Of a stretch of DNA of 64,000 nt, positions 4,749 through 39,700 are shown piece by piece (position 1 is the stretch's first letter; each line of letters begins with the position of its first letter). The stretch is from Thermodesulfobacteriota bacterium (GTDB taxonomy: Bacteria; Desulfobacterota; UBA8473): assembly GCA_040757775.1 (NCBI GenBank), contig JBFLWQ010000001.1, forward strand, positions 58,917 to 122,916, read 5' to 3'. A program made the position numbers and the translations under genes. Below the pieces are notes generated by a model. That model was not told where the DNA came from. It did not search any database and saw nothing but the letters and a program-made list of their open reading frames with translations.

Positions 4749-4969
4749 GACCTGAAAAACTATTTAGTTGGCACTGAAAAATTCCCTTTTCCGCTCTCTG
4801 GTGCAGGTTTTTTGACCCATCTATGACTTGCTCCAGGCATTTTCAGGAACTCTCCGCCTACGGCGGATCAAATCCGCCAAAGGCGGACTTATCTTCCGCT
4901 TCGTCAAGATGGGTACCCCAAAAATCCTGCTCATATTCGCTCCAAAGGAAATTTTTCGATGAACTATCT

Positions 4970-6409: not shown

Positions 6410-6419
6410 AGATATGCCT

Positions 6420-7004
6420 CTAAAGGTCTATAAAGTTCCTGACAATCTTCTTCCCCTCACCGGTAAGAAACGATTCCGGATGAAACTGCACCCCTTCTAT
6501 TGTATAATCCCTGTGCCTTGTGCCCATTATAATGCTATCCTCTGTCCTTGCTGTAATCTCAAGACAGGGAGGGAATTCATCGTTTGACACAATAAGAGAA
6601 TGATACCTGGTGGCCTCAAAAGGATTTTCAACTCCCCTATAGACACCCTTTCCATCATGATAGATCATGGAGGTTTTGCCGTGCATAACTACATCTGCCC
6701 TTTTAACCTTACCTCCAAAAACTTCTCCTATGCATTGATGGCCCAGACAGACACCAAGTATACATTTCTTTTCTCCAAAATACCTGATGACGTCTTTCGA
6801 TATGCCAGCATCGTCCGGTGTACATGGACCAGGGGAGATGACTATCTTGTCCGGGTTTATATCTTCTATACCTTCCAGGGTTATCTTATCGTTCCTTATC
6901 ACCTTGAGTGTCACTCCAAGCTCACCGAAGTGCTGGACAAGGTTATAGGTAAAGGAATCGTAATTGTCTATCATCAGTATAAGCATCTTTTTCCCCTGGT
7001 GCAC
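6420..7004 (-). CDS. pabA: glutamine amidotransferase component II (PabA/TrpG type)
   Basis: 194 aa, MLILMIDNYDSFTYNLVQ, class-I GATase Cys in GVCLGHQ, and HPESF near the C-terminus. Confidence 0.7.
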   Translation of the reverse strand: MHQGKKMLILMIDNYDSFTYNLVQHFGELGVTLKVIRNDKITLEGIEDINPDKIVISPGPCTPDDAGISKDVIRYFGEKKCILGVCLGHQCIGEVFGGKVKRADVVMHGKTSMIYHDGKGVYRGVENPFEATRYHSLIVSNDEFPPCLEITARTEDSIIMGTRHRDYTIEGVQFHPESFLTGEGKKIVRNFIDL

Positions 7005-7125
7005 AACTATACCATTTCTTCTTAAGGTTTTCCAGTGGTTTTATAAAAAGAGCGCTAAAATACAAAAAAGGCTGGATTTTACCCAGTAATTGAGGTATAT
7101 CTATTTCTCGTAACTGGAGGATATT

Positions 7126-8634: not shown

Positions 8635-8711
8635 GCCCCCGTAGCTCAGGTGGATAGAGCAAGGGATTCCTAATCCCTGTGCCGCGTGTTCGAGTCACGC
8701 CGGGGGCACCA
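8635..8711 (+). tRNA. tRNA-Arg (anticodon CCT), 77 nt with encoded CCA
   Basis: Cloverleaf read by hand: acceptor GCCCCCG/CGGGGGC, D-arm GCUC/GAGC, anticodon stem AGGGA/UCCCU with loop UUCCUAA (anticodon CCU), T-arm GCGUG-UUCGAGU-CACGC, discriminator A, then CCA. Confidence 0.85.
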
Positions 8712-17668: not shown

Positions 17669-18280
17669 ATGGCAAGAAAACGTAAAAAAAGGAAGAAGTA
17701 CAAAAGTTTTGTAAGGCTGAAAAAGTTGAAGTGTTTTTCTGAGGTTGACGTTCGTTTGCGTTGTGGAGCATCGCCAGAAAAGGTAGCCAGTTTTATCCAG
17801 CAGGAAATGAATGAATACGAAGACGTTAAATGGGTGTCGCTTGTCAGGCAACTGTACAAGTACAAGAAATCGATACCTGTAACCCAGGTTCTTAGCCCAA
17901 CGTATATTGATAGAGCGGTAAAACAGATAGAGATGTACATAGATATTGCCAATGATGAAGCAAAGTTGATTCAGTACCAGAAAATAAGATTAGCGTACTA
18001 CGGACAAAGAGAAGAAGTCATGAACGTACCCATTCACGAACAAAGTCGGAATATCGAATTGCTTGCGAATCTGTTGAAACAGCATCGGGATACGCTAATC
18101 GAGCTAGGAATCGTCAAGAGACAGCCAATTGAAATCGAAGAGAGGGTTGCTGGAAGGCTTGAACTTGAGCACAAGCATAAGCTATCGCCCCAAGAGACTC
18201 AAAGAGTGACATCAGAGGCACGAAAACTTCTGAAGTTATTAAAGGGTGGTAAGGATGAACGTGAGAGAAATACCGCCTAG
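17669..18280 (+). CDS. putative terminase small subunit
   Basis: 203 aa, basic N-terminus (MARKRKKRKKYK). Sits immediately upstream of and overlapping the large terminase; assigned on position only. Confidence 0.3.
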   Translation: MARKRKKRKKYKSFVRLKKLKCFSEVDVRLRCGASPEKVASFIQQEMNEYEDVKWVSLVRQLYKYKKSIPVTQVLSPTYIDRAVKQIEMYIDIANDEAKLIQYQKIRLAYYGQREEVMNVPIHEQSRNIELLANLLKQHRDTLIELGIVKRQPIEIEERVAGRLELEHKHKLSPQETQRVTSEARKLLKLLKGGKDERERNTA

Positions 18281-20186
18281 TTATGAATACGCTGTAACTG
18301 AGACACTGGCGAATCTGAGGTCAGAACAAGAGAAGGAATACCTCATCAAAATTCTTGAAGAGGTATCGACGAGGGGTGAGTCGCAAACACTTCATGAGCT
18401 GGAGGAAATAAAGTACATTGAGCGACCGGTTGACATTGAGACATTCGTAACAGAACCGTATTATCTCGGTACCCATGGCGTTGACCTCTATCCAAAGCTG
18501 AAGGATGATCTTATTGAGTTGTTTGAAGGAAAGTATAATATAGTTATTTTAAGTGGTTCTATTGGCTGGGGAAAGGACTTCTTTACGTCATTTGTAATTT
18601 CGAGGCTTCTGTATGAGGTAAGTTGTCTAAGAAACCCGCAGAGAACGTATGGCTTGGCACAGGATTCGTCCCTTGTCTTTTTGAATCTCTCCATCAATGC
18701 TACAAAGGCTAGAAAGGTACTGTTTAAGGAAATTGCTACGAAGATAAAAGCATCCCAATACTTTAAGGAAAAGTTTCCGTATGAATCGCACATCATGTCT
18801 GAACTGCGCTTCCCGAAGGATGTTAGAGTTGAGCCCGGTAACTCTCTTGAGACGTCGATTATAGGAGAGAACGTATTCGGGACGGCAATCGATGAGGTCA
18901 ACTTCATGGCTTATGTAGAAGGTAGCAAAATGGCCAGAGGCAGGAAGGTTTATGACCAGGCTGAACTGTTGTTTAGTGCTGCACAGAGGAGAATGAAATC
19001 CAGACTGCCACTTGGGGACCCACCAGGCATGTTGATTGCTCTCTCGTCTAAGCAGTACCCGGATGATTTTATCGAACGTAAAAAAGATGAGTTAAGAGAC
19101 GACCCAAAGGTGTTTGTTAGAGAATATGCAGAATGGGAGACCAAACCTGCTTCGAGGTATTTAGGTAAAACGTTTAAGGTGGAGGTATCTGGCAGGCATG
19201 GTATGTCGAGGGTCCTTGTTGGAAATGAAGAGAACATTGAAGGTAAGGTAATAGATGTTCCGATTGAATATAGGCACGACTTTGAAACTGATCTTGAAGG
19301 ATCGATCAGGGATATTGCAGGAATTTCTGTCCTTTCGGTGGAGCCGTTTATTATGCAACGAAATAAGATATATGACTGCATTCAGAATGAGAGAGAGCAC
19401 CCCTTCACCATGGTAGAAAGCACGCTACAGGACGGTGGAAGTATAAGGCGTGAAATATTGTGTGAGCATGATGAGGAACTGGGAAGGTGGACGCCAAGGA
19501 TGAATCCTGAAGCACGACGGTTTATTCATATTGATCCGTCTTTGTCTGGAGATGCGACCGGTTTCGCAATGGGCCATGTTTATAAGTATGTGAATGTGGT
19601 TAGAACTGGAAGGGTCAGACAACCTAATGAGGATGAGCAGGAATCTAGTAGGTCTGAGATTCACGTTGAGTTTGCCCCTGTCATCTATATTGATTTTATG
19701 CTGCGGATCATCCCACCGCCTGGTGGGGAAATTATACTTGGTGATGTAAGGACTCTCGTATATGAACTGAGCGTTCTTGGGTTCAAGATACATACGGTAA
19801 GCCTTGATTCCTTTCAGTCAGCGGACAGCCTTCAGCAGCTTGGACAAAAAGGTTATAATACCGAATTGCTAAGTGTTGATACTGATATTACCCCATACTC
19901 AATGACGAAAATGGCATTGTATGAGGATCGGTTGATGCTCTACAACTATGAGTGGGTGAGATATGGAAGAACGTATGGTATTGTTGAGGAGTTGAAGAGG
20001 CTAGAACATAATAAGAAGAAAAGGAAGGTAGATCACCCTGCCCAGTATTGGAAGGATCTCGGAGATTCGCTTGCTGGTGTGGTGTATCATTGCGAAACGA
20101 AACGTCACGATGAACCAGTTGGGCCAAGTAAGGGGTACACCGATGATGAGAGAGGAGTAGAGTTCCTTGAAAGAAAGCATAGATAG
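18255..20186 (+). CDS. terminase large subunit
   Basis: About 640 aa; ATPase Walker-A-like ILSGSIGWGKD near the N-terminus and nuclease-like acidic residues in the C-terminal half. Followed downstream by the portal gene. Confidence 0.6.
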   Translation: MNVREIPPSYEYAVTETLANLRSEQEKEYLIKILEEVSTRGESQTLHELEEIKYIERPVDIETFVTEPYYLGTHGVDLYPKLKDDLIELFEGKYNIVILSGSIGWGKDFFTSFVISRLLYEVSCLRNPQRTYGLAQDSSLVFLNLSINATKARKVLFKEIATKIKASQYFKEKFPYESHIMSELRFPKDVRVEPGNSLETSIIGENVFGTAIDEVNFMAYVEGSKMARGRKVYDQAELLFSAAQRRMKSRLPLGDPPGMLIALSSKQYPDDFIERKKDELRDDPKVFVREYAEWETKPASRYLGKTFKVEVSGRHGMSRVLVGNEENIEGKVIDVPIEYRHDFETDLEGSIRDIAGISVLSVEPFIMQRNKIYDCIQNEREHPFTMVESTLQDGGSIRREILCEHDEELGRWTPRMNPEARRFIHIDPSLSGDATGFAMGHVYKYVNVVRTGRVRQPNEDEQESSRSEIHVEFAPVIYIDFMLRIIPPPGGEIILGDVRTLVYELSVLGFKIHTVSLDSFQSADSLQQLGQKGYNTELLSVDTDITPYSMTKMALYEDRLMLYNYEWVRYGRTYGIVEELKRLEHNKKKRKVDHPAQYWKDLGDSLAGVVYHCETKRHDEPVGPSKGYTDDERGVEFLERKHR

Positions 20187-20998: not shown

Positions 20999-21088
20999 AA
21001 TTATGTTGTTGTGCTGGTATGCTTGTGTTGAGGTATACGTAAGGACTTGGGAGTCCTTTGTCACATATCTGTTATGGTCTGCTTGAAG

Positions 21089-21122
21089 CCAAAGGACTTG
21101 TTGTCCTTTGGCTTTTCTGTTT
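21089..21122 (+). terminator. rho-independent terminator-like hairpin
   Basis: CCAAAGGAC-ttgtt-GTCCTTTGG (perfect 9-bp stem) followed by CTTTTCTGTTT. The track's TTG start for the portal (21108) lies inside this hairpin. Confidence 0.45.
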
Positions 21123-21137
21123 GAAAGGTACTCAGGC

Positions 21138-24100
21138 ATGTGGTTGATAGATAGAATTACTGATCTTCTGACGAAGGCCAAGTACGATCCGTCCGGAGTT
21201 GATGGTCCTGGAACTACGAGAACTGGTAATGAGCAGAACGGATGGTATTATAATCTGATAAAGCTCGAGGAGACACGAAAGGCACGATACAAAGATTATG
21301 ACACGATGGATGATGAGTTCCCGGAAATATCCTGTGTTACAGGAGACACAATAGTTCACTGTTTAGATGGAGATTTTACGATTAAGGAATTGACAGAGAA
21401 CAAGAAAGATGAAATGTTCTTGGTTTACAGTTGCGATGGGAATAGAATAGTTTTTGATGAAGCGTATGCTCCACGACTCTCAGGTAGAAAAGTAAAAGTT
21501 ATTCGCGTAAGGTACAGAAGCAACAACCGATGGACCCATGAACTACGAGTTACTGGCGACCATAAATTTATGATGAGGGACGGTAGCATGAAAATGGCTG
21601 GAAAGTTAAGGTCAGGAGATAGCCTAATGCCGTTCAACGCTCAGTATGTAAATGATAGGCGGGTCATTAAAGATTTGGATGGTAGGAAGGTCTATGCGTC
21701 CCATCTGGTATTTGAGCAATACGCCAATAGAGCAGTTGATCTTGGCAAAGTGATTCACCACATTGATGGGAACCGGAGAAACGACAATCCACTAAATTTG
21801 CATGAATTATCGCTTGAAGAACATTGCCGTAAGCATAGCATGGGGAATCAGCATACATTGGGAATGATATGGAACGATGATACTGAACGAGTGGAAAAGC
21901 ATAGAAAGCGGATGCTTGGGAATAAGCATAAAAAGGGGAAGGCCAATAGTATAGAAACACGAATGAAGATGAGGAAAGCTCATGCTGAAAGACGACTGCT
22001 AGGGCTAAAACGAAACAGAGAATATGGAAAGCCATGGAACAAGATACAAATTACGCCGGAAGATTTGGTAAATGCTGTTGAAAGAACGAATGATTATAGA
22101 GAAGCAAGCGAACTGTTAGGAATTTCAGTTCCTGTGTTTTTCAGGCGTGTGAAGGATTTTGGTTTAAGGGGAGCTGTTGATTATAATCATGTGGTAGTAG
22201 GTATCGAAGATGGAGGGTTTGAGGATGTTTATGATTTGACGACACGGCGTACTCATAAGTTTGCTGCGAATCACCTAATTATATCGAATTCGAGTATCGA
22301 TATATATTCAGACAATGCGACACAGTCGGTTGATGGAACGCATGAGTCGTTTTGGATAGAATCCGAAGACCAGAAAGTAAAGGATGTTCTGACCAGGATT
22401 AACGAGGAGACTGGACTGCAAGATTCGATTTGGTCTATTGGGCGAAATCTGGTTAAGTATGGAGATGATTTTGAGGAAATAGTATTAAACTCAAGTATGT
22501 TCGTAGTAGATATAAAAGGATTGCCCTGTGAGCAGATGTACAGGAATGAGGATGAATACGGCAGGTTGCTAGAGGATGGTGCGTTCACGCAGAGAGACGT
22601 AAGCACAAACAAGGAGCTTGCAGAGTTTAAGAGCTGGCAGATCGTCCATTTCAGAAATGTGGTGAAGAGAGGGACGAAATACGGGAGGAGTTTACTGTAT
22701 CCTGCAAGAAAGGTATTCAAACAGTTACAGATGATGGAAGACGGTATGGTGATTGCGAGGCTGACCAGGAGCAACATGAGGTACAAGTGGAAAATCGATG
22801 TCGGCAATATGTCTGCAAATGAGGCACGTACATTCCTGAGAGATGTCAAGATGGAGCTCAGAAAGAAGCGCGTTATTGACCCTGCTACGGGCAAGTTTAA
22901 ACTGACCGATAATCCATTAAAAGATGAGGAAGATTTTTTTGTGGCTGTAAGGGATGGATCTCCGGCTGACGTTGATGCCATACAAGGTTCTGCAACGCTT
23001 GGTACTATTGGTGATGTAGAGTATTTTCAGAATAAGCTGTTTTCGATGCTGAAGGTACCGAAGGCGTATCTTGGATTGGAGAGAGATGTGAATGCTAAAT
23101 GTTTGGCTGGCGATACCCCGATATGTCTTGCAAATGGGAAAGATATGCCGATTCGTGAATTAGTAAAGCTTTATAGTAATGGGCAAAGGTTTTACGTGTA
23201 TTCATGCCGTAGAGATGGTGAGATAGTAATAGCAGAAGCACATTCCCCAAGGATAACAAGAAGAAATGCCGAAATGGTAAAAGTGACGCTCGATAGTGGG
23301 GTGAGCTTCAGGTGTACACCTGACCATCCGATAATGTTGCGCTCAGGTTCTTTTTGTCAGGCGAAAGATATTAAGAATGGCACAAGCATTATGCCTTTGT
23401 ATAGAAAGATCTCCGAGAAACCTGAGAATAGTATTAGCGGATACGAGTTACATAGAAATCCACGAACGGGCCAATGGAGATATACGCATAGGCTTGTTGG
23501 AAGACATCTTCCCAGGCCGATCGGTGAAAAGCGTTGGGTCATGCACCATGTTGATTTTGATAAGAGAAATAACTCGCCAGACAACCTTGTTCTCATGACG
23601 TGGGACGATCATGTAAAGCTACACATGGCTTTTGTAGCGTTGTTGCATACCGAAGAAGTTAAGAAGCGTAGCAGAGAGGGCGTTTTGAAATCTGCAAAAT
23701 TCAAAAAAAGACTGTTGAGCATGAATAGCAGCCTTTGGAAGAGAGCGAAGTCTAGCAAGACATTGAGACGATTGTATGCTGAAGGCGTTATGAATGTAAA
23801 GGGTGTCCTAAATCCAAGATACAGAAAGGATGTCACGGTTGAAAGTATAGCGAATGCAGCTCGAGAAGCAAAATGTTCATCTGCAAAAGAGATACAAGAA
23901 AAAACTGGAATTAATTATTCGTTGTTAAGAAGACGACTTGACAAGTTGGGACTAAGTTATCAAGAGTTTGCAGATAAAGTTTTGGAAGCGGGGTATAGAA
24001 AAACTGGATGGCATCGCCCTGACTTAAGTCTTGAAAAAATAGGTGAAGCCATCGCTTCCTTCGCAACAGTAAAAGAGGCAGCAGAAAAATTAGGTGTTAA

Positions 24101-24752
24101 CCGGCCTGACCTTTACCAGATATGTAAAAGAAGAGGGACGACTGTTCAGGAATTGCGGGCATCCAACCATAAAGTAGTGAGCGTTGAACCCGACGGCGTG
24201 GATGCCGAAACGTACGACTTAACTGTAGATAACTATCATACGTTTGCAATAGGGTGTGGTATCTTTGTTCATAATAGCACCCTGACCGTACAGGATGTAC
24301 AATTCGCAAGGACTGTCCGTAGGTATCAGAAGATATTAACGAATCAGATAAGATCGATATACAATCTAGGGCTAATCTTGCAATCATTGGATCTTGCGAA
24401 GTCTCCGTATTATGTTTTCTTTCCACCTATAAATACTGTTGATGAGCTTGCTAGGTGGCAAACCGAAAAGGTAAAGGCTGAGATAGCAAAGATTTACGGG
24501 ATTGATATTAACTGCGTGTCTGAGGAATTTATTCTGTCCTATTATCTTGGACTGACTGACAATGAGATTAAGGATGTTTCAGGACAGACGAAACCGGTAC
24601 GGCAGGGCAAGGAGCAGCAGGTAGTAGAAACGATCACGACTTCCAACATCGAACCGCATGAGCTACTAGAGCTTGGAAATCTACTGGAAGCTCTGAGAGA
24701 CCTTGTTGAAATTGAACTGGAGAAGAAGGAACAAGAACGATGGGAGCATTAG
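21138..24752 (+). CDS. portal protein interrupted by two HNH-type inteins
   Basis: First ATG after the hairpin. Removing the two inteins leaves an extein of about 500 aa, typical for a portal, in the position after the terminase. Confidence 0.55.
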   Translation: MWLIDRITDLLTKAKYDPSGVDGPGTTRTGNEQNGWYYNLIKLEETRKARYKDYDTMDDEFPEISCVTGDTIVHCLDGDFTIKELTENKKDEMFLVYSCDGNRIVFDEAYAPRLSGRKVKVIRVRYRSNNRWTHELRVTGDHKFMMRDGSMKMAGKLRSGDSLMPFNAQYVNDRRVIKDLDGRKVYASHLVFEQYANRAVDLGKVIHHIDGNRRNDNPLNLHELSLEEHCRKHSMGNQHTLGMIWNDDTERVEKHRKRMLGNKHKKGKANSIETRMKMRKAHAERRLLGLKRNREYGKPWNKIQITPEDLVNAVERTNDYREASELLGISVPVFFRRVKDFGLRGAVDYNHVVVGIEDGGFEDVYDLTTRRTHKFAANHLIISNSSIDIYSDNATQSVDGTHESFWIESEDQKVKDVLTRINEETGLQDSIWSIGRNLVKYGDDFEEIVLNSSMFVVDIKGLPCEQMYRNEDEYGRLLEDGAFTQRDVSTNKELAEFKSWQIVHFRNVVKRGTKYGRSLLYPARKVFKQLQMMEDGMVIARLTRSNMRYKWKIDVGNMSANEARTFLRDVKMELRKKRVIDPATGKFKLTDNPLKDEEDFFVAVRDGSPADVDAIQGSATLGTIGDVEYFQNKLFSMLKVPKAYLGLERDVNAKCLAGDTPICLANGKDMPIRELVKLYSNGQRFYVYSCRRDGEIVIAEAHSPRITRRNAEMVKVTLDSGVSFRCTPDHPIMLRSGSFCQAKDIKNGTSIMPLYRKISEKPENSISGYELHRNPRTGQWRYTHRLVGRHLPRPIGEKRWVMHHVDFDKRNNSPDNLVLMTWDDHVKLHMAFVALLHTEEVKKRSREGVLKSAKFKKRLLSMNSSLWKRAKSSKTLRRLYAEGVMNVKGVLNPRYRKDVTVESIANAAREAKCSSAKEIQEKTGINYSLLRRRLDKLGLSYQEFADKVLEAGYRKTGWHRPDLSLEKIGEAIASFATVKEAAEKLGVNRPDLYQICKRRGTTVQELRASNHKVVSVEPDGVDAETYDLTVDNYHTFAIGCGIFVHNSTLTVQDVQFARTVRRYQKILTNQIRSIYNLGLILQSLDLAKSPYYVFFPPINTVDELARWQTEKVKAEIAKIYGIDINCVSEEFILSYYLGLTDNEIKDVSGQTKPVRQGKEQQVVETITTSNIEPHELLELGNLLEALRDLVEIELEKKEQERWEH
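21333..22289 (+). mobile_element. intein 1 (319 aa) with HNH homing-endonuclease domain
   Basis: Begins ...PEIS|CVTGDTIVHCLDG (block A); block B TGDHKF; HNH core HHIDGNRRNDNPLNLHEL...EEHCRKH; ends VYDLT...THKFAANHLIISN|S (blocks F/G, Ser+1). Confidence 0.5.
23100..24275 (+). mobile_element. intein 2 (392 aa) with HNH homing-endonuclease domain
   Basis: Begins ...NAK|CLAGDTPICLANG; HNH core HHVDFDKRNNSPDNLVLMTWDDHVKLH; ends TYDLTVDNYHTFAIGCGIFVHN|S (canonical HN + Ser+1). Confidence 0.6.
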
Positions 24753-27153: not shown

Positions 27154-28446
27154 ATGGAATGGCTAATTGAGACTTTGCCCGCTCGCCTCGAGATCGTTGA
27201 AGAGGCGACTGAGGCAAACGGTGGAAGGATGAAGGTTCGTGGCAAGTTCCAGGAAGCCGACGTGATAAATGGCAATGGTAGGGTTTATCCACGAAAGATA
27301 TTGAAAAGGGAAGTGGAAAGGTTGAAGCAGGACGTAGCTGAGCGGAGAGCGTTTGGAGAAGGAGACCACCCAAAAGATGGGAGGTCCACGATTTCTGGAA
27401 CGGTAAGTATCCTGACAGATATTGACATGCCTGACAATGAGGTATTCGGAGAGGCTATAATCCTGAATACCGCAAAGGGCAAAGACCTTCAGGAGATAAT
27501 TCGAGCCGGTGGTCGAGTTGGTGTGTCTAGCAGGGGCAGTGGAACAACAAAGAGAGGTAGATGGAATGGAGAAATGGCCGATGAGGTGGGGGAAGACTTT
27601 AGACTGAAAACGTTTGATTTTGTGATAGGCGCAAGCGTCAAAGGTGCTGAGGTGGGTTCATACACAGAACAGCAGCTTGATGTAATAAACATTCTCTCTG
27701 ATAGCCAGCGTGAGTTGGGAGAGGAGCAAAAAGGGGAAAAGGAGGAGGTTATGAAACTAGGAGAATTGAAGGAAAAGTATCCAGAGCTGGTGAAGCAACT
27801 GGATGAGGAGGTCACTGCTAGAGTGACTGATGAAATCACCAAGAAGGTAACCGAGGAAGTCACGAAAAGACTGTCCGATGACTTTGATAAGAAAGTCACC
27901 GAGGCAATTGATCAGCAAAGACAGGAGATTGTGAAACAGGTACGAGTGGAAATAGAGGGGTCGCCTGAGTTCAAAGCTGGTAATGACGTGCTTCGCAAGA
28001 TAATCGAATCGGTGAAACCACTACTCGGAGAAAACAAAGCAGATGATACCGATGATGAGAATAAGAAGATTATCGAGGGCTTGAAGGCATCCATTGAGGA
28101 GCAGGAAAAGAAGATTGAGAAGTTAGATAACCAGGTTAAGTCGCTGACTGGCCAGCTCTCTGAGGAAAAGTCTAAGGTTGAGGTAAAGGCATACATCGAG
28201 GAGAAGACCAAGGGCGAGGTTTTACGAAATAGCCTGATGGAGCGACTTGGTGACTGCAAGACAAAGGAAGAGGTTGATGAGCGGTTGCCCAAGGAAAAGG
28301 AAGCTATCAAGAAGGTAATCGATGAGTCCAAGCGTCCCCCAGGACATGGTAAAGTGCTGGATGAAGATAAGGAAGAGAAAGGGCTTACGGAAAACCAGAA
28401 AAGGCAACGTAGGGCTGCCGGTATCAAGGAGAAGTCCGACAAGTAG
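27154..28446 (+). CDS. prohead protease-like domain fused to a coiled-coil scaffolding domain
   Basis: N-terminal ~130 aa resemble the HK97-type (S78/U35) prohead protease (VRGKFQEADVINGNGRVYP; GEGDHPKDG; VGVSSRGSG). The C-terminal ~300 aa are E/K-rich heptad coiled coil. Lies upstream of the capsid gene. Confidence 0.45.
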   Translation: MEWLIETLPARLEIVEEATEANGGRMKVRGKFQEADVINGNGRVYPRKILKREVERLKQDVAERRAFGEGDHPKDGRSTISGTVSILTDIDMPDNEVFGEAIILNTAKGKDLQEIIRAGGRVGVSSRGSGTTKRGRWNGEMADEVGEDFRLKTFDFVIGASVKGAEVGSYTEQQLDVINILSDSQRELGEEQKGEKEEVMKLGELKEKYPELVKQLDEEVTARVTDEITKKVTEEVTKRLSDDFDKKVTEAIDQQRQEIVKQVRVEIEGSPEFKAGNDVLRKIIESVKPLLGENKADDTDDENKKIIEGLKASIEEQEKKIEKLDNQVKSLTGQLSEEKSKVEVKAYIEEKTKGEVLRNSLMERLGDCKTKEEVDERLPKEKEAIKKVIDESKRPPGHGKVLDEDKEEKGLTENQKRQRRAAGIKEKSDK

Positions 28447-28488
28447 TAACGTTTGAACGAGAAGAATATAAATAAGGAGGTTCAAATC

Positions 28489-29592
28489 ATGAAAGAGAGG
28501 AAACGATTATCACTGCCAGGTGTTGCACCTGCGTGGTTGAATGAGGATGAGGAAAGAAGGGAAAGATGGGCGTATCTGACAGAAGATATAAAGGATGATC
28601 TGCTAAGACGACAGGTCGAGACGATGTTGGATAACGAAGCATGGTACATGGATTATCTTGAAGAGACATCGCAGACCTCTAACGTAGGTACGTTTACTAC
28701 GTTTGCGTTCCCGCTCGTCAGAAGGATTTATCCAAAGCTGATCGCAACAGAGCTGGTTTCGGTTCAACCCATGACCCAGCCTACAGGCAAAATCTTCTAC
28801 CTGGATTTCAAGTACAATACCGGAGGTCAGAGAATCGACACGAATCCAGATAAGACCTATGCCAATGCAACCGAGGGCGGTGCAGTAAAGGAGATTAACT
28901 TTGATATCACCTCTGTGACTGTTGAGGCAGGAGAAAAGAAGCTCAAGGCAAAATGGACTATCGAGGCTCAGCAAGACTTGATGGCGTACCATGGCCTTGA
29001 TGCTGAAACTGAGTTAATGGGCGTCTGTGGAGATGAAATTACAAGAGAGATTGACAGAGACATCATAGACGATGTTGTTGCTCAGGCTTCTGCTGGTAAC
29101 GTCAACTGGTCAAAGACGATTCCGACAACTGCGCCATGGAACGTATTGGATCCAAAGGTCTACAAGGAAACCTTGTACGATGCGATCATCGATGCGAACA
29201 ACATGATTTTCAAGAAGAGGTATAGGAATGCTTCCTGGATTGTGGCCGACCCCGATACCTGTACCAGATTTGAGAAGCTCGAGAAATTCAAGTTGTTCGA
29301 AGGGGCTGATGACGCCACAATGAATATGGGAGTGATCAGATTCGGTACCCTTGCTAACAAGTATCGAGTCTATAAAGATCCGTGGTTCGCTGCCGACAAG
29401 ATACTGTTAGGTTACAAGGGGCCTACGTGGTTGGAGACAGGGTACGTCTATGCGCCGTACATTCCGTTGTACGTGACGCCTTTGATAATCGACCCTAATG
29501 ATTTCATACCAAGACGAGGGATGATGAGTCGGTTTGCCAAGAAGGTAGTTAGTGGCGACTTCTTCGCAACGGTAACGCTGACCGGGTCATAA
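28489..29592 (+). CDS. major capsid protein (putative)
   Basis: ATG 28489 with RBS aaggagg (the track's TTG at 28453 rejected). About 367 aa, following the scaffold/protease. Confidence 0.5.
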   Translation: MKERKRLSLPGVAPAWLNEDEERRERWAYLTEDIKDDLLRRQVETMLDNEAWYMDYLEETSQTSNVGTFTTFAFPLVRRIYPKLIATELVSVQPMTQPTGKIFYLDFKYNTGGQRIDTNPDKTYANATEGGAVKEINFDITSVTVEAGEKKLKAKWTIEAQQDLMAYHGLDAETELMGVCGDEITREIDRDIIDDVVAQASAGNVNWSKTIPTTAPWNVLDPKVYKETLYDAIIDANNMIFKKRYRNASWIVADPDTCTRFEKLEKFKLFEGADDATMNMGVIRFGTLANKYRVYKDPWFAADKILLGYKGPTWLETGYVYAPYIPLYVTPLIIDPNDFIPRRGMMSRFAKKVVSGDFFATVTLTGS

Positions 29593-29593
29593 A

Positions 29594-30631
29594 ATGCTGA
29601 TGTGGAATTGGACTCCTGTACCTCAAGTCTTCTATGACGAGGTACAGGAGCCGTTCGCCGTGCTGCCCGGATTTTGCATCGACCACCAACTGGTACGAAA
29701 TGCAGAAAGCGAATATCTCCGACCTGCCCCCGTTCTAGCCAAGTTTCTTGCAAGTCGGAAGACTGCCAGTGTGTGTCTTGTAAGAGGGTATGCACTCGGC
29801 GACCTGATAATGCTAACACCCGTCATTGAACAGTTGAAGGAAGACTATCCTGGAGTCAAGATTTCGCTGGTAGTACAGGATAGGTACAAGGAACTGTTTC
29901 GGTATTATCGTAGCGTTGAGGACGTACTGGACTACAAAAGGGTCGGATCAAGGACGTTTGACTATGGGGTAATGCTGGATGGTGTTTTGGAGGTTGACCA
30001 TAGGAAAAGCTGTAAGAATAGGTCTCATAGAAGTGACATGTATGCAAGGTTTCTTGGTATGACGCTCATGAAGCACGTATTTCGACTTCCGATTTCTGAC
30101 CTTGACCGAAAGTGGGCTTTTAGGTTTCTTGCTGAGGCGGGAGTTGGCAAGGATGAACGGATCGTTGCTATACAAATCAAAGGGTCTACACCTGTTAAGA
30201 CGCTGCCGAAAGAAAAGGTAGTAAGGATATGTAAGGCGATTGTCGCTCTTGGTGCAAAGGTACTACTCATCGACCATGATAGAAACACTGGCTGGGAAGG
30301 AACTGGAATAATCAATGCCTGTGGGAAAACGAATGTACATCGGCTAGTAGCATTGCTTGAAAGAAGCAATCTCGCTGTTTGTATGGATAGTGGAGTGCTG
30401 CACCTGACTCACTGTACTGGGACCCCCACCGTAGCTTTGCTCGGAGCGACAAGGCCTCAAGATCGAACGGTATACCATCCTGATTGTGTAGCTGTTGAGC
30501 TAAATAAGGAAATAGGATGCGAGTCATGTTTTGAGGCGATGAGTGCATGTGGAGGTAGGGCAAATTGCATGGTTGCTGCAAATGAGAAAACAATTATACA
30601 GGCAATCGAAAGGAGAATTGCTAATGATTGA
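29594..30631 (+). CDS. glycosyltransferase family 9 (ADP-heptose heptosyltransferase-like)
   Basis: N-terminal GYALGDLIMLTPVIEQLKEDYPGVKISLVV; C-terminal NLAVCMDSGVLHLTHCTGTPTVALLGAT; terminal CxxC...C cluster. Confidence 0.65.
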   Translation: MLMWNWTPVPQVFYDEVQEPFAVLPGFCIDHQLVRNAESEYLRPAPVLAKFLASRKTASVCLVRGYALGDLIMLTPVIEQLKEDYPGVKISLVVQDRYKELFRYYRSVEDVLDYKRVGSRTFDYGVMLDGVLEVDHRKSCKNRSHRSDMYARFLGMTLMKHVFRLPISDLDRKWAFRFLAEAGVGKDERIVAIQIKGSTPVKTLPKEKVVRICKAIVALGAKVLLIDHDRNTGWEGTGIINACGKTNVHRLVALLERSNLAVCMDSGVLHLTHCTGTPTVALLGATRPQDRTVYHPDCVAVELNKEIGCESCFEAMSACGGRANCMVAANEKTIIQAIERRIAND

Positions 30632-31007
30632 AATGATGCAAGCTGTAGCGCCGGTTGTCAATTTTTCGCTCGTTATTGTCCTTGTAGCTTATATATGGAA
30701 GGCCAGGTCTCAAGGAATTGATGCCATGCAGCAAAAGATCGATATGGCAGCGACCCGCACCGAACTTGATAAGGTTGAGACCAGGCTTGGCGATTATGCC
30801 AGAAAGCAGGACTTGGATATGGTAATCAAGACGCTGGAAACGCTGGATGAAAAATGGGAACGAAGAGAGGAACGAATTATGACACGTCTTGATGATGGCA
30901 ACAAGGAGTTCAGGAAGATTGGTGAATGCATTGCTAGTCTTGACACACTGACAGACCTGTTGAAGAGGCAGGTAAACAGTATAACTGGAGCAAGAACTTG
31001 TGGTTAG
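30624..31007 (+). CDS. membrane-anchored coiled-coil protein
   Basis: ATG 30624 with RBS aaggaga (the track's 30543 start is inside the GT gene). One N-terminal TM helix followed by coiled coil. Confidence 0.3.
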   Translation: MIEMMQAVAPVVNFSLVIVLVAYIWKARSQGIDAMQQKIDMAATRTELDKVETRLGDYARKQDLDMVIKTLETLDEKWERREERIMTRLDDGNKEFRKIGECIASLDTLTDLLKRQVNSITGARTCG

Positions 31008-31041
31008 GTGGGTTAAATAACGAAAGAAAAAAGGGGGAAGT

Positions 31042-31239
31042 ATGCAGGTACAGACCGTAAAGATTAAGAACCATAGCAGAATTGACCAGATCGTTTACGA
31101 CAGGGCTTTTGATCCGACCATTGTCAGGCCTGGCGATACCGTTGAAGGAGAGTTTTTTGTCGAGAAGACGAAGGGACTGACCATAACAAAGGTCAAGAGT
31201 TCCGATGTGAAGATGAGGCAGAAAAAAGAAGAGGAATAG
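31042..31239 (+). CDS. hypothetical small protein
   Basis: RBS aaggggga + ATG; 65 aa. Confidence 0.3.
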   Translation: MQVQTVKIKNHSRIDQIVYDRAFDPTIVRPGDTVEGEFFVEKTKGLTITKVKSSDVKMRQKKEEE

Positions 31240-31242
31240 AAT

Positions 31243-31860
31243 ATGGCATACTGTACTGAGGATATTGTGTCTCTATGGGTAAGCCTGACCGGAAAGTCCA
31301 CTACTGTCAAAAACGTCCTGATGGAGGCAGCAACTGAGTATGTTGATAATGCTACAGGAGACAAGTTTGTAAAAGAGGACGGGGCAGCAAAGCTGTTTGA
31401 CGGAATGGGCAGTGAGGTTCTGAAAGTCTGGCCCAAGCTCAGGTCGATTACCAAACTTGAGGTTATGGATGATGCTGGTGATTGGGAAGAGGTGTCAAGT
31501 GATGAGTACAGGATTGCTGACAACTGGATTGAGCGTACTGATGGGACATTCCCGAATGGAATTGACAATGTGAGGGTTACTGGTAATTGGGGCTGGACCT
31601 CTACGCCGAACATAATAAAGCTGGTGACCGGCAGAATTGCTGCGGTAATGCTGGAGCAGAAAGGACAGATAACGAGTGAGACGATTGGAGCGTATTCTGT
31701 GACCACCGGAAAGGATGGAGCGATCACTGTTGAGCAGGTATTGAATATGTACAGACTTCACGCTCCTGTTGATATGGGAACGATACCGTTTAGGAGAGAG
31801 ATTGAACTCGCTGATGAGACTATTGACGATTTTTACAGGGACATATTGAGAGGACTGTGA
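31243..31860 (+). CDS. hypothetical virion protein (possible head–tail connector)
   Basis: 205 aa in the late structural module; no motif recognised. Confidence 0.3.
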   Translation: MAYCTEDIVSLWVSLTGKSTTVKNVLMEAATEYVDNATGDKFVKEDGAAKLFDGMGSEVLKVWPKLRSITKLEVMDDAGDWEEVSSDEYRIADNWIERTDGTFPNGIDNVRVTGNWGWTSTPNIIKLVTGRIAAVMLEQKGQITSETIGAYSVTTGKDGAITVEQVLNMYRLHAPVDMGTIPFRREIELADETIDDFYRDILRGL

Positions 31861-32855
31861 TGATTGGGATTGACCAAATAGACTACGATTTGAGGACAAT
31901 GGAGCCTATCATCAGGCGTGCACAGCCGGTGAAAAAACCGGAGGGGTCTAAAGGAGTTAGTCCTATTGATGATGGACATATGTTCTACCCGCGTGTGGCA
32001 TGGGTTCAGGACTGGTCGACGACAGGTGGTGCTGAGCTAAGTAATCTCGAAGTTATCCGAGTCGGTAGACTGCTTGGGTTTAGTATTCAGCAGATAACAC
32101 CTAAGAATTTTGATCTGAAATGGCTCAGGAGTGCCGACCTGATAGTAATCAATAATTTTTTCCAGTTCAAGGATGACCAGGCGAAGAAAGTACTCGAGCT
32201 GATATTTGAAAAGAATGTCCCGTATGTCAAGTACGAACATGACCACAGGGAGATAGAAAGGCTTGGGCTATCCAGACGACTCTTTGGAAAATCGAGGCTG
32301 AACGTGTTTATTTCCCCACTACAGGAGAAAGGTCATAGGAAAGTTATCGAGGTGGATCCCTGTATCGTGCTGCCTCTCGCATACGATACGCACAGGTTTT
32401 GCAATGGTGGAGAGGACGTAAGGAAAAAGAACACTGTTGTGTCAACGACCGGCAAGCTATGGAATAGTAAAGGACTGATGAATATCTACGCATTTGTAAT
32501 GAATAGGCCTGATTTGATCTTCGATGTGTACTCGATAAAGAACGATATTATTTCCCAGTTGCTTGGGAACAAGAAGAATGTGAGGCTGCATGAGCCAATT
32601 CCGATTGAGCAAATGCCCAATGTTTACAGACAGGCTGAATATGTAATTCACCTACCAACGTATCCAGAAGCATGTGGGAGGAGTGTTGTTGAAGGTGTCC
32701 TATGTGGATGTAAGCCAGTAGTTAATGAGCTATGTGGCGTTGCTTCTTACGATTGGTGGGGAGATAGAAAGAAACTCGTTGATGCTGTCAAAAAGGCTCC
32801 GTATAAGTTTTGGAAAGCTATTGACAGCATAGAAAGGTGGAAGTCATGCACATGA
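31857..32855 (+). CDS. GT-B glycosyltransferase (GT4-like)
   Basis: EACGRSVVEGVLCGCKPVV is an E-x7-E retaining-GT motif; ATGA overlap with the upstream gene. Confidence 0.5.
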   Translation: MMIGIDQIDYDLRTMEPIIRRAQPVKKPEGSKGVSPIDDGHMFYPRVAWVQDWSTTGGAELSNLEVIRVGRLLGFSIQQITPKNFDLKWLRSADLIVINNFFQFKDDQAKKVLELIFEKNVPYVKYEHDHREIERLGLSRRLFGKSRLNVFISPLQEKGHRKVIEVDPCIVLPLAYDTHRFCNGGEDVRKKNTVVSTTGKLWNSKGLMNIYAFVMNRPDLIFDVYSIKNDIISQLLGNKKNVRLHEPIPIEQMPNVYRQAEYVIHLPTYPEACGRSVVEGVLCGCKPVVNELCGVASYDWWGDRKKLVDAVKKAPYKFWKAIDSIERWKSCT

Positions 32856-33460
32856 AAGAGTATTGGATCAGTAGATTCAAGTCACAAGGTCCGACTATGG
32901 TTGAGGGGACTCCAAGCGAGTATGAGACCAGAACGAAACAGAAGGTTGCCCTGCTTAGTGGGCTGATCAAGATGCACTTCACAAAGAAGTCGTTGCTGCT
33001 TGACTATGGATGTTGTAACGGAAGACTTGCGCATCCGTTGTCGGAGCTGGTGCAAAAGGTGTACGGAGTGGATATCGTGCCGGATGCGATAGCGATGGCG
33101 AAAGCTGTGGACAATAAGAAAGCAGATTTTTTTCTACTTGAGGAAGGTCCCCTACCCTTCCGAACAGGGTTCTTCAGTGGTGCGTATGCGATCACTACGC
33201 TTGCACATGTCCCACATGATGAAATAGGACAGGTAGCTCAGGAAATAAAGAGGGTTGTGCGGAAAAACGGGATTATGATTCTCTACGAGAATGTCTCGTA
33301 CTGGATTGAGAAACCAAAGAGCCATATGTTTTTCAGATCTGTTAAAAAGTATGCCGAGCTTTTTGGACCCTGTGAGGTAATCGAAGGGGTTGATAAACCA
33401 CGACCGGATGACCTCATGAAAGAAGAACACGTAGTAATGATATTCAGGAACTTGAAGTGA
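32846..33460 (+). CDS. class I SAM-dependent methyltransferase
   Basis: Motif I LLLDYGCCNGRLA. Start ATG 32846 or 32852, overlapping the upstream stop. Confidence 0.6.
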   Translation: MHMKEYWISRFKSQGPTMVEGTPSEYETRTKQKVALLSGLIKMHFTKKSLLLDYGCCNGRLAHPLSELVQKVYGVDIVPDAIAMAKAVDNKKADFFLLEEGPLPFRTGFFSGAYAITTLAHVPHDEIGQVAQEIKRVVRKNGIMILYENVSYWIEKPKSHMFFRSVKKYAELFGPCEVIEGVDKPRPDDLMKEEHVVMIFRNLK

Positions 33461-34389
33461 GAACAGATCAGGTAAGGAAAATAGCGGTTCACTTCCAGAA
33501 TGGCATAGGGAACTGGATCATGTTCACTCCATCAGTGCAGGCTCTGAAATCACTGTACCCGAATGCTACCATGACAGTGGTCCTTGACTCTGGTTGGCAG
33601 GATAATAGAAAGAATGCTATCAGAGAGCTTGTTGGATCCCTGGATGTCGTTGATAAGGTAATAGAGTACCCGAAACAATCAGTTGACGGATACGATCTGT
33701 ACTTTGCGAATAATTGGGGAGAGCCATGTGATACACACAGGCTTTTTGTGGAGAAAGGATTCAAACAAAGGCAGCCTGAATGGAGAACAAGACTGATTCA
33801 TGAAACTGAGTTTTACATGGAAGATGTGTACGCTCTTGGCTATCGAGGCCCAATGCCGAAACAGCATGTGTCTGTTGCTGCTATGCCTGTAGTGAAAAAG
33901 AATGGGATGAGAATAGGTCTTTGTAATGGTTACTTTAAGGATAGTGGTAGATGGAACTGGAAGAGGAAGGCATGGGACAAATTTCCCGAGCTTGCAAGTG
34001 TACTGAAGTTGTATTTTGATGCCGAAATAGTCCTGTTCGGCAATGCGGATGAGCTTGAAGGAGTGGAAGGAGATATTGATTATAGGGGTAAGCTGAAAAT
34101 AACCGAGACGGCAAAGGCAATATCTCAGTGCGACCTGATGGTAAGTAGTGATAGTGGGCTTATGCACGTAGCTGATGCGTTGGAGGTACCGCTTGTAGCC
34201 ATTTTTGGGGCCACGCTGTGTTCAAAGAATGGGCCGATACAGACCAAGAATGTTGTAGTGAGGTCTCCTGTTGCATGTGCTCCATGTCAGTTTACGTTTG
34301 TATTCAGGGCGTGCAGTGATTTCGTGTGTATGAGAGCTATTCAGGTAGGGGATGTTATGGCTGCTGTCCGCCAGTTGATTAAGGATTAG
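33457..34389 (+). CDS. glycosyltransferase family 9 (heptosyltransferase-like), second copy
   Basis: KIAVHFQNGIGNWIMFTPSVQALKSLYPNATMTVVLD; SSDSGLMHVADALEVPLVAIFGAT; terminal CAPC; GTGA overlap with the upstream gene. Confidence 0.65.
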   Translation: MRTDQVRKIAVHFQNGIGNWIMFTPSVQALKSLYPNATMTVVLDSGWQDNRKNAIRELVGSLDVVDKVIEYPKQSVDGYDLYFANNWGEPCDTHRLFVEKGFKQRQPEWRTRLIHETEFYMEDVYALGYRGPMPKQHVSVAAMPVVKKNGMRIGLCNGYFKDSGRWNWKRKAWDKFPELASVLKLYFDAEIVLFGNADELEGVEGDIDYRGKLKITETAKAISQCDLMVSSDSGLMHVADALEVPLVAIFGATLCSKNGPIQTKNVVVRSPVACAPCQFTFVFRACSDFVCMRAIQVGDVMAAVRQLIKD

Positions 34390-36523: not shown

Positions 36524-36798
36524 CACGGTTCTATGGATGGACACACTCTCAGATAATGTCATTAACTCCAGGGCAGTATCGGTTTTACCTGTCTGGTATG
36601 GACAGACTTAATGCTAGTGAACGCCTTGAGGAAATTGTTGTTCATTCAATTCCATATCTTAGTTCTGGAAGTAGAGCTGGTATTGTTCAAAGGTATCGAA
36701 ATGAACTTATGAACGATCTATGCGAACCATACGAACCATGTCTCGATGAAACTGCTTTTTTAAATATAAAAAGACGACTGCCTAGAGGACGTGCATAA
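36458..36798 (+). CDS. tail assembly chaperone -1 frameshift extension (GT product, 36113..36466 joined to 36466..36798)
   Basis: Slippery A_AAA_AAA at 36460-36466 (within the A9 run 36458-36466). The -1 frame is open from the slip site through the 36556 ORF to 36798, where ATGA couples to the tape-measure start. Confidence 0.5.
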
Positions 36799-39700
36799 TG
36801 TTTGACGCTGGTAGTTTAGTTTCTAAGCTCACGCTTGATGCGACTGAATATTTCAAAAAGCTTGGTGAAGCCTTGTCCAAGTTTGAAGGACTTGGTACGT
36901 CTATCGGCAAAGAAATGGATAAAATCCAAAAGGATGGACAGATTGCAGCCGATAAGATGGCTAGCTCCTGGAATAAGGCACTGAAGGACATTGAAAAGAA
37001 TTCCGATATGTTCAAGAGCATCGGAATGAAGATAAGTGCTATCGCTGCGGCTGGTACTGCTGGACTAACAGCGACTGTTATGGCGTCGTCGAAATTCGAG
37101 GCGTCCCTTGCTAATGTGTCTACTCTGGTTAATACGAGTGAAGTCAGCATGGCAAAGCTAAAGCAAGGTATCATGGATTTGCCTCCTGAACTTGGGCGGG
37201 CAACCATGTTGAGTGAAGGCTTGTATCAGGCGTTGTCTGCTGGAGTAAAGCCTGCTGAGGCGATAGGTTTTGTCACTGCTGCGGCTAAGGCGGCAAAGGC
37301 AGGTTTGACTGATGCGTTTACCGCTGTCGATGCTGGAACAACGATCCTGAACGCGTTTGGAATGCAGACTTCCGACGCTGGCATAGCTTTTGATCAGATG
37401 TTCAAGACTGTTGAGCTTGGCAAGGTCACATTTGAAGGTTTGGCAGTAACGGTTGGAAATGTAGCACCTACGTTTGCCACTGCAAAGCTGTCCACCGAAG
37501 AGATGTTCGCCGCCATAGCGACCTTGACTGCTGGCGGTATTGACGCTGCACGTGCTACTACGTCATTGAACAGTGTAGTTTTAAATATAATCAGGCCACA
37601 GGAAAATGCTATTGAAGTTGCACGACAGTACGGGATTGATTTGAGCCTGGCTGGACTACAGGCGAAGGGGTTCAGTGGATTTTTGAAAGAGCTTCAGGAT
37701 AAAGTTGGAGGTAATACTGAGGCACTCGTTAAGATTATACCCAACATCGAAGCCTTACGAGCTATCCTGCCGTTGGTTGGAACACAGGCTAATATGTTTG
37801 GAGAAGCCCTGGACGCTATCGGAGCGAAATCAAAAGGTGCTATTGACAAAGCTTTCTTAAAACAGATGGACACAACTAAGGAGTCATTTGCTGCTCTTGG
37901 AGTTAGTGTTGAAAAGTTTGCGATTGCTATTGGAGACAAGCTTGCACCTGTCATAAGGGTTGTAACAGAGCGTGTAACGGATATGGTTAAATGGTTCAAT
38001 GACTTGAACGATGGATGGAAAACTGCCATCGGTCTCTCGGTAGCTCTTGGTACTGGACTGGCTGCTATTACTGGTCCTGCACTTCTGCTGATAGGATACC
38101 TTCCACGAATAGCGGAAGGTATTGCGATGATAGGTACTTTTATTGCTGCGCACCCGATCGGGCTGGCGATCACTGGGATTGCTGCAGCGATAGGTGCGCT
38201 TACTATTGCGTTTTTGTCATATAAAGCAGCCCTAGCCGATGTGACCCCATTTCAGGAATATTCACATAATCTTGCCGTTGTAGATAAAGAGCTAGAAAGA
38301 TTGAGGGGACGAGTTGAGACCCTAGAAAAACAACCATGGATTTTCGGACCAACGAAGGGCATGATTCAGGAGACACTGGATCGGATTAAAGAACTGGAAG
38401 AGAAAAGGCAACAGATCATACGTGACTTTGCCAAGATAGGAGACAAAGAAGAGGAGGATAGGAAGAAGGCAAAAGAGGAAAAAGAGAAGCTGGAAAAGGA
38501 GAAAAAGAGAATAGAGGAGCAAGAGGAAAGGAATAGACGAAAGCAATTAAAGTCGCAAGCAGATGATGAGGCAAGAAAGGAACGAGTGAAGCTCAACCGT
38601 GAACTAGAGTTGTCTCTTATGAACGAGAAGGAAAAAGCCATTGCCATAATGAATGAAAAGGTTGAGGCGTTCAGGAAGGCTGGTCTGGATGAGACTAAGA
38701 TTCAGGGATATATTGATCAGGAAAAGCTTGAAATTGAGCAAAAGTATACAGGGTTGACACAAAAAGAGTACGATAAGCTCGTGGAACACTGGAGGCAGGC
38801 TAATAAGTACAAGGCAGAACTGGCTGGGAAGGCCCTTGAAGAAGAACTCAGAGAGACTGATAATGCTATTAACCAGCAGGAAGCCATGTATCGTGATTTG
38901 TTCTACAAGTCAGGTCAATATGCTAAGGAATATACATACTTTAGAGAGCTTCAAATCGATATTGAAACCGATGACTTGATAGAGTCCCTGACAAAGAATG
39001 TTCGAAGCATAGAAGAAGCTAATGAAATCATCTTGCTTATAGAACAGCAAGCGGTAGAAAAGAAGAGACAACTCCATCTAGAAACCAATAAGGCAATGCT
39101 TCAGTATTCAAATGATTTTGTTATGGGGTGGAGTATAGGACTGGATGAAATGCTAGCAAAGCAATACACCTGGGGACAGGCGGGCTATGATGTGTTCAAA
39201 GCCTTTACGGATGGTGCAAAGACTATGTTCTCCAGTATGTTTATGGACTTTTTCACGAGCGATCTCAAGACGTTTGGGGATTACTGGGAGTCGTTTTGGA
39301 ACTCTATGCAAAGAAAGTTCTCGGAAATTTTGTCACAGATGCTGGTGGAATGGATGATGACGCAAGGAAGGATGCAATATGCCACAGGCGGCGGATATAC
39401 ACAGACTGGAGCAGGAGGACAGGTCGTACAGACCAGCTATGGGATGTTGTCAGGGGCAGCATTGGCTGGGATTCCTGCAGGTTCCGAGGTTGCGTTCGTG
39501 CCTCTATCCGAATTGTCTCAGGCAGAAATCACGGCGGCCGTGCAGCAGGGGGCGAACATTACCACCACATCAGAGGGTGTCCAGGGGCTTGCGGTGACAA
39601 AAGTTGCGGAGGCTGGGTTCTGGCAATACGCCGGGACGGCGGGTATTAGCTATATGGGGTCTAATCTTGTTGCTTCTCTTTTGGGAACGGAAAAGGGAAG

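Follow-up and report, generated by a model that had tools for sequence, protein, structure and literature searches.

Inteins in phage portal genes are known from actinobacteriophages (Kelley et al. 2016, PMC5050341; ICE-BLAST survey, bioRxiv 10.1101/2025.01.02.630785), where their distribution over related phages is patchy and where they have been read as homing elements; in the ICE-BLAST survey they fall into several unrelated groups. In-frame inteins with an HNH nuclease were described by Dalgaard et al. 1997, as cited in the same survey. Two inteins in one phage gene have also been described already (PMC7886860; PMC3322345), and one of these reports concerns two Hint-type inteins in the TerL gene of a crAss-like phage (Yutin et al. 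2021, PMC7886860). Here we report on a stretch of 64,000 nucleotides (64 kb, hereafter the window) of contig JBFLWQ010000001.1 from a Thermodesulfobacteriota bacterium, an uncultured organism of the sulfate-reducer type. In this window the portal gene of a tailed prophage is very probably interrupted in frame by two class-1 HNH inteins, which belong to one family combining an HNH nuclease with helix–turn–helix (HTH) modules.

The portal gene and its two insertions

The portal gene lies on the + strand in an open reading frame (ORF) that extends from a TTG codon at position 21108 to position 24752 and comprises 1214 codons without a stop or frameshift. The original prediction had placed an ORF of 1214 amino acids (aa) at position 21138. 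The ORF is present, but this length belongs to the TTG codon, whereas the first ATG at 21138 gives a precursor of 1204 aa and 138.8 kDa. The ATG is likely the true start codon and is preferred over the TTG because a terminator-like hairpin on the + strand (21085..21115; 13 bp stem and T-run), which ends the upstream HTH_17 gene, overlaps the TTG, because the motif AAAGG is situated 9 nt upstream of the ATG, and because the N-termini of the homologues (M-G-LIDxI) line up with the portal N-terminus (M-W-LIDRI).

Three extein segments, all on the + strand, remain when both insertions are removed in silico: an N-extein of 65 aa with the last residues DDEFPEIS (21138..21332), which aligns to the N-termini of intein-free homologues, a middle extein of 270 aa (SSIDIYSDN...ERDVNAK; 22290..23099) and a C-extein of 158 aa followed by the stop codon (STLTVQDVQFARTV...; 24276..24752), the latter two being defined by the Pfam match and by homologue alignment. 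The joined protein comprises 493 aa with a calculated mass of 56.97 kDa (503 aa if the TTG were used), in line with the portal-sized remainder of about 500 aa and the spliced product of about 57 kDa that had been expected. It matches the Pfam family Portal_T4 (PF07230) in one contiguous stretch from profile position 2 to 429 of 433 (E 7.3e-58, 196.8 bits, cut-off 22.9 bits), the outcome of an alignment that the original prediction had set as a test; with the unspliced precursor the match is broken into two pieces. The spliced protein also matches the portal group phrog_213 of the PHROG collection (E 1e-53) and, by phmmer, the T4 gp20 structures 3ja7 and 6uzc (E 2e-18).

The comparison with homologues pointed in the same direction. 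A tblastn search of 50,697 phage records with the spliced portal yielded 2557 matches, all below 60% identity, and many of the alignments run in a single piece across both junctions, as for residues 36-443 in phage Phosso. From a search of 5.8 billion proteins 129 portal homologues were obtained, mostly of 500-580 aa and intein-free, the best being 54-55% identical. Both junctions are free of gaps in the alignment to 111 intein-free homologues, and only 4 of the top 120 extein homologues carry an intein. The 1214-aa form of the portal is itself a cluster representative (P0264); an exact look-up of the portal protein with either start in the contig index returned nothing, and a contig scan of genomes with the portal returned one distant intein-free relative, a Deltaproteobacteria metagenome-assembled genome (MAG). 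Judged by these profile and homologue matches the gene encodes a portal protein of the T4 gp20 type, and the gene order of the head module described below agrees with the portal identity proposed originally.

Opposite the middle extein the - strand contains a Ser/Leu-rich ORF of 236 aa (22271-22981). We judged this ORF to be spurious, a by-product of the purine-rich and strongly skewed coding strand.

Intein 1 occupies positions 21333..22289 of the + strand (319 aa, 37.1 kDa), starts with CVTGDTIV and ends with HLIISN before SSIDIY; Pfam, the AlphaFold2 model and relatives at the same codon define it as a class-1 intein. Intein 2, likewise of class 1, occupies positions 23100..24275 of the + strand (392 aa, 44.7 kDa) and extends from CLAGDTPI to GIFVHN before STLTVQ. 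The residues expected for splicing are in place: Cys1, block B (T74-G-D-H77 in intein 1, T73-P-D-H76 in intein 2), blocks F and G (VYDLTTRRTHKFAAN-HLIISN and TYDLTVDNYHTFAIG-CGIFVHN, respectively) with the block F Asp and His and the terminal Asn in both inteins, and Ser at +1. Among 79 aligned family members the Cys1 and TxxH columns are conserved to at least 95%. Taken alone, each intein scored above the curated Pfam cut-off both for Intein_splicing (44.8 bits for intein 1 and 53.5 bits for intein 2, cut-off 35.8) and for HNH_3 (29.5 and 26.4 bits, cut-off 24.8).

The HNH core is located at 21756..21836 (+ strand) in intein 1 (HHIDGNRRNDNPLNLHELSLEEHCRKH, intein aa 142-168) and at 23544..23624 (+ strand) in intein 2 (HHVDFDKRNNSPDNLVLMTWDDHVKLH, intein aa 149-175), both delimited by the HNH_3 match. 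In the alignment of the 79 family members three His are invariant, and a fourth His and two Asn are kept in at least 96%; these nearly invariant columns correspond to H142, H143, N151, N155, H164 and H168 of intein 1, and all six positions are kept by both inteins. Thus the earlier description of two independent insertions with the junctions CVTGDTI...HLIISN before S and CLAGDTPI...GIFVHN before S, each with an HNH core of its own, was borne out, by matches far stronger than chance would give. Toward the C-terminus follows a predicted HTH DNA-binding module, single in intein 1 (intein aa 255-277, 22095..22163, + strand, in a helical segment spanning residues 242-282 of the model) and double in intein 2 (aa 261-284 and 324-346, 23880..24137, + strand); the single module of intein 1 aligns to each of the two modules of intein 2. 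The two inteins are homologous over their full length (26% identity, E 3e-21).

A comparison of folds was needed because a PDB sequence search with intein 1 gave only a marginal match. The AlphaFold2 models reached a pLDDT of 86.8 for intein 1 and 80.7 for intein 2, with values of 95-98 for the HINT lobes of both. In these models the N- and C-terminal lobes together build a HINT fold in either intein, and Foldseek aligned intein 1 with the Npu and Ssp DnaB mini-inteins at TM-scores of 0.77-0.78 (normalised to the target). The similarity of the fold to the HNH endonuclease I-HmuI is weak.

The insertion points of intein 1 and intein 2 are designated site a and site c, respectively. At the DNA level the joined, intein-less junctions read ...CCGGAAATATCC followed by TCGAGTATCGAT... 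at site a and ...GTGAATGCTAAA followed by AGCACCCTGACC... at site c. On T4 gp20, with domain limits taken from PMC4493910, site a falls between D89 and N90, where the wing domain starts, and site c between G393 and T394 in the tunnel loop lining the DNA channel. Site c is situated between the two top conservation peaks of the family (90th percentile) and site a at the 83rd percentile. The placement of both inteins in conserved portal blocks agrees with the general rule that inteins insert in conserved sites (PMC2814812).

Taken together, the gene would be translated into a 139 kDa precursor bearing both inteins. Each intein would excise itself by an N-S acyl shift at Cys1, transesterification to Ser+1, cyclisation of Asn and an O-N shift, leaving a portal protein of 493 aa and 57 kDa and free inteins of 37 and 45 kDa. 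Splicing would precede the assembly of the portal ring, with the wing start and the tunnel loop being interrupted in the precursor; we regard this order as very likely because a 45 kDa insert would otherwise reside in a channel-lining loop that contacts neighbouring subunits. The HNH nuclease, guided by the HTH modules, would then cut intein-free portal alleles of co-infecting relatives, and repair from the intein-bearing copy would spread the intein by homing, so that each intein would act as a selfish DNA element. For annotation this would mean that the 1204-aa ORF is to be described as a 493-aa portal with two mobile inteins and not as a giant fusion protein.

Mobility of the inteins and alternative readings

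Relatives at site a allowed the history of intein 1 to be followed. A 319-aa intein at the same codon was also found in the metagenomic portals P0008, P0009 and P0016 and in the fragment P0011. Between the window and these relatives the inteins are 61-66% and the exteins about 50% identical. An empty allele is the portal P0004, which shares 96.6% of its protein and 94.1% of its DNA sequence with P0009 after removal of the intein; the Ser+1 codon at site a is AGC in the empty P0004, TCA in the occupied P0009 and TCG in the window. Between P0009 and P0016 the ratio of nonsynonymous to synonymous substitution rates (dN/dS) of the intein is 0.078 overall, with 0.03 for the HINT lobes, 0.12 for the HNH and 0.15 for the HTH part, and dS is 0.58 in the intein and 1.9 in the exteins. 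By these ratios the lineage of intein 1 is under purifying selection in every module. Because of the pair of empty and occupied alleles, the low dN/dS and the lower dS of the intein compared to the exteins, the data indicate that this lineage is a functional element whose transfer between phages is more recent than the divergence of the phages themselves. Of the relatives, a word-indexed search with intein 1 recovered the fragment P0011 alone; that known ones were missed is a limit of the tool.

The original prediction had pointed to the Ser-Asn end of intein 1 as non-canonical, and this feature is real: the penultimate residue is S318 in intein 1 and H391 in intein 2, hence only intein 1 departs from a penultimate His. 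We considered the alternative that one or both inteins are decayed relics with poor or lost splicing, leaving a nonfunctional portal in a defective prophage. This end would be the first argument for decay, and it can be added that intein 2 has no close relative, selection on it thus not being measurable, and that no second att site was found in the window. The ...IISN end, however, is common to all five alleles at site a despite up to 39% divergence of the intein, and the HINT lobes have a dN/dS of 0.03, both of which argue against decay. The last two residues are HN in 112, KN in 15 and SN in 12 of the 160 portal-borne inteins whose boundaries are clean, so that a Lys or Ser in this position was found in 27 of 160. 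The penultimate His is an assisting residue for Asn cyclisation and not obligatory (PMC4031507), and splicing without it has been documented by Chen, Benner and Perler 2000, for the Ssp DnaE intein and for the Ceu ClpP intein, as cited in PMC4031507. Moreover, neither intein has lost a nucleophile or a block B or F residue, 3.6 kb are read through without a stop or frameshift, and the two HINT domains were modelled with high confidence as stated above. We therefore consider decay unlikely, and we read the SN end as a conserved minority variant that gives no sign of it. A natural Ser-Asn terminus that appears to be conserved under selection would be a modest but helpful case for work on splicing chemistry and on the engineering of inteins.

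Second, the inteins could have been co-opted as conditional splicing switches, responding to redox state or temperature and gating the formation of the portal dodecamer and the initiation of the prohead; this would be compatible with selfish inteins. Both insertions are located in critical and conserved parts of the portal, the host lineage is of an anaerobe type and both inteins start with Cys1, and a penultimate residue other than His could slow the last step. Insertion into conserved sites is, however, the general rule for parasitic inteins (PMC2814812), a near-identical phage does without the intein (P0004 compared to P0009), the distribution is patchy with most homologues being intein-free, and intact HNH nucleases under selection point to mobility and not to domestication. 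With no hint of a sensor in the data, we regard such a switch as very improbable.

It is hardly conceivable that the insertions are not inteins at all, namely free-standing HNH genes, intron-encoded ORFs or an in-frame assembly chimera: phage HNH homing endonucleases are indeed usually free-standing or intron-encoded (e.g., PMC12880540), but here a single ORF spans both junctions, each HNH domain is flanked by HINT N- and C-lobes that form one fold in the models, excision at the boundaries gives back the host sequence with residue precision, and the same architecture recurs in independent assemblies from JGI, ENA, Logan and IMG/VR.

Several observations weigh against a portal gene invaded by two active, mobile inteins and have to be set beside the evidence for it. 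We infer splicing and nuclease activity of these two copies from their sequences, and the missing penultimate His might make the C-terminal step of intein 1 slow. The phage in the window has no relative above about 56% portal identity, and for this reason no empty allele of the exact gene was found. For intein 2 the collections searched contain no close relative; the best match is 45% identical and seated three codons off. An att repeat, that is a copy of the 3' end of the tRNA-Arg gene, was not found within the 64 kb window. Finally, the GC content of third codon positions is 0.38 in both inteins and 0.45-0.49 in the exteins; with z values of about -1 this lies within the spread of the phage's own genes and supports a foreign origin at most weakly. 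Nevertheless, two intact HNH inteins in a gp20-type portal gene remain, in our view, very probably the right description.

Inteins in related portals and the surrounding prophage

The relatives of intein 2 are found at neighbouring codons. Its nearest relative is the portal intein of the IMG/VR contig L002, which is 45% identical over the full length and is seated exactly three codons upstream, the extein segment being free of gaps: L002 reads ...EKDV, then C...HN, then SSKALLSNQDIQF, compared to ...ERDVNAK, then C...HN, then STLTVQDVQF in the window. The next-best relatives among portal inteins are mostly inserted three codons downstream (after ..L and before S), and one relative, in P0326, occupies the same codon. 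Eight residues of the tunnel loop hold five insertion points. Two metagenome scans and one IMG/VR scan for relatives of intein 2 added no further close relative and returned only the L002 contig again and one weak match. In the search of 5.8 billion proteins the full-length identity reached 32-38% (up to 48% over short partial alignments), and these matches were mostly in other host genes, i.e., C1 peptidase, caspase, ThyX, dCTP deaminase, GyrB and RtcB.

We then asked how common portals with several inteins are. With intein 1 as query, phmmer found 2930 matches at E<=1e-3 among 1.84 billion cluster representatives, the top match being the window's own protein. Among the other 144 of the best 145 matches were 74 gp20-type portals of 618-2818 aa. 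Counted by matches to the HINT N- and C-lobe profiles, the 75 portals, that of the window included, contain one intein in 5 cases, two in 27, three in 32, four in 9, and five and six in 1 case each, numbers that are not frequencies, since ranking by the intein 1 match favours multi-intein proteins. The largest, P0277 (2818 aa), has six inteins, P0265 and P0279 have four each, and the IMG/VR contig L004 (1-4539) has at least three in its portal. Most inteins of these multi-intein portals are of the HNH type, and mini-inteins of 140-150 aa occur, e.g., in P0216, P0280 and P0289.

For 43 fully resolved portals, 100 inteins could be placed at about 40 positions. In coordinates of the spliced window portal the hot spots are 64-65 (19 inteins), 275 (15), 71-75 (11) and 332-339 (14 inteins at five positions). 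For 48 of 99 inteins the nearest relative shares the portal position, compared to 5.7 expected by chance, and for 24 of 99 it is found at another position at most 10 residues away (13.8 expected); some of the one-residue offsets may be alignment noise. A tentative interpretation, which we regard as possible rather than probable, is that region-specific lineages of HNH inteins within gp20-type portals re-seat at neighbouring codons, with the portal ranking among the most intein-dense families. If this were true, HNH inteins could move to nearby ectopic sites and allele-specific homing would not be the whole story; the sole apparent requirement for a new site would be a Ser or Thr that can be placed at +1.

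Inteins are present in the TerL genes of relatives and at several further sites of their portals, and close genomes differ in which genes are invaded; the heavy traffic of homing endonucleases proposed for this phage lineage is thus supported.

The distribution among close relatives is that of a mosaic. In L037 (25-3261) it is TerL (1078 aa) that contains an intein, of the LAGLIDADG type, and the portal is free of inteins; in L036 (873-2837) TerL (654 aa) is intein-free and the HNH intein resides in the portal; and in L011 (1-1209) the TerL-like ORF starts within the C-terminus of an intein. Furthermore, a 595 kb uncultured phage (L038, LR756511.1) contains at 1984-4557 an unannotated portal of 857 aa with an intein (FADEA before CVAGDT...CVMHN before C) about 10 residues downstream of site a, in which no obvious HNH motif is present.

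The prophage itself is part of a 266,592 bp contig of the Thermodesulfobacteriota MAG, and the proteins neighbouring the portal are identical to NCBI entries MEW66139xx. Cellular genes occupy positions 1-8493 of the window (a PFK-response regulator fusion, UbiA, PabC-like, PabB-like and PAS-GGDEF proteins). They are followed by a tRNA-Arg(CCT) gene at 8635-8711, and from about position 8800 onward phage-type genes are found on the + strand, the GC skew switching at the same place. It looks as if the prophage is integrated at this tRNA gene; a recognisable integrase was not found within the window.

The head module consists, in this order, of a TerL-like ORF, small genes, the HTH_17 gene, the portal gene, a prohead protease of the S77 type (27154-28446), a gp23-type capsid protein (28453-29592) and a tape-measure-type protein (36798-40193), and the relatives L036 and L037 share this order of head genes. 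At E<=1e-3 neither Pfam nor PHROG gave a match to the intein-free TerL-like ORF (646 aa, 18246-20186), whose counterparts in relatives carry the tag PF27249 (MJ0330_N) in the precomputed annotation.

Directly downstream of the capsid gene a glycosyltransferase block extends over 29594-34389, with GT9 genes at 29594-30631 and 33457-34389, a weak, sub-threshold match to GT1 at 31857-32855 and a methyltransferase at 32837-33460. In L036 a GT9 gene is likewise situated directly 3' of the capsid gene. Glycosylation of the capsid or virion is possible.

A third intein had been noted in the MoxR ATPase. Its presence could be confirmed, but it is not an intein of the HNH type. It comprises 341 aa (53339-54361, + strand) and is inserted into a MoxR-type ATPase gene (53021-55138) directly after the Walker B motif (IGFLDE). 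With Ala as first residue, GHNW (block B Trp), RCIAVD (block F Cys) and VTHN before C it has the Trp-Cys-Thr signature of class 3, and it carries two LAGLIDADG motifs (Pfam Hom_end and LAGLIDADG_3). Once this intein is removed, the ATPase matches bpMoxR in a single stretch (4-179 of 205) and AAA_5 over its complete length. The ATPase forms a trio in the phage region (53021-57625) with a VWA protein (55158-56672) and a DUF6744 protein (56699-57625); the matching Pfam model is named for MoxR-vWA-beta-propeller ternary systems.

Comparison with known systems

In the literature searched we found no account of multi-intein gp20-type portals and none of homologous inteins whose tunnel-loop sites are separated by a few codons. 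Multi-intein portal genes of the T4 type are abundant in public metagenomes; this makes the case less remarkable than first suggested, and the portal in the window is an ordinary example of a known phenomenon. Some wider interest lies in the density of invasion of the portal and in the offsets of a few codons, and it is confined to these aspects, which rest on the relatives and not on the window. With a pair of empty and occupied alleles, a three-codon offset and up to six inteins per protein, the portal family is suited to studying how HNH inteins choose and change their sites.

The portal inteins of actinobacteriophages resemble the present ones in being located within the portal gene of a tailed phage. 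The differences concern the nuclease, the portal family and the host: in the actinobacteriophage survey LAGLIDADG nucleases prevail among the inteins, the portals belong to IPR009279 and the hosts to the Actinobacteria, whereas the window has two HNH-type inteins in one gp20-type (PF07230) portal of a Thermodesulfobacteriota prophage.

With respect to nuclease type and layout, comparable phage inteins are the HNH inteins in dCTP deaminase (Aphanizomenon phage CL131), in NrdA (Dickeya, Salmonella and Synechococcus phages) and in TerL (Lactobacillus phage CL2). They share the succession of HINT N-lobe, HNH, helical/HTH region and HINT C-lobe at 26-30% identity (E 1e-7 to 5e-25) and reside in other host genes; none of them is in a portal gene and none is close to the window inteins. 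The solved inteins compared were NrdJ-1 (8ubs), those of Npu and Ssp DnaB (4o1r, 1mi8) and Mtu RecA (2imz), together with the endonuclease I-HmuI (1u3e). Among the matches listed, no intein structure is described with an HNH domain, and the identity to the window inteins is 20-28%. The inteins without a penultimate His cited in PMC4031507 have in common with intein 1 a residue other than His followed by Asn; in intein 1 this residue is Ser and is kept in five alleles.

The two-intein TerL gene of the crAss-like phage offers a likeness in gene organisation. There, too, a gene for packaging or morphogenesis is split into three in-frame pieces in a lineage rich in self-splicing elements; the 64 kb window by itself contains three inteins. 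In the crAss-like phage, however, the invaded gene is TerL, the inteins are of the 'Hint-Hop' kind and an alternative genetic code is used.

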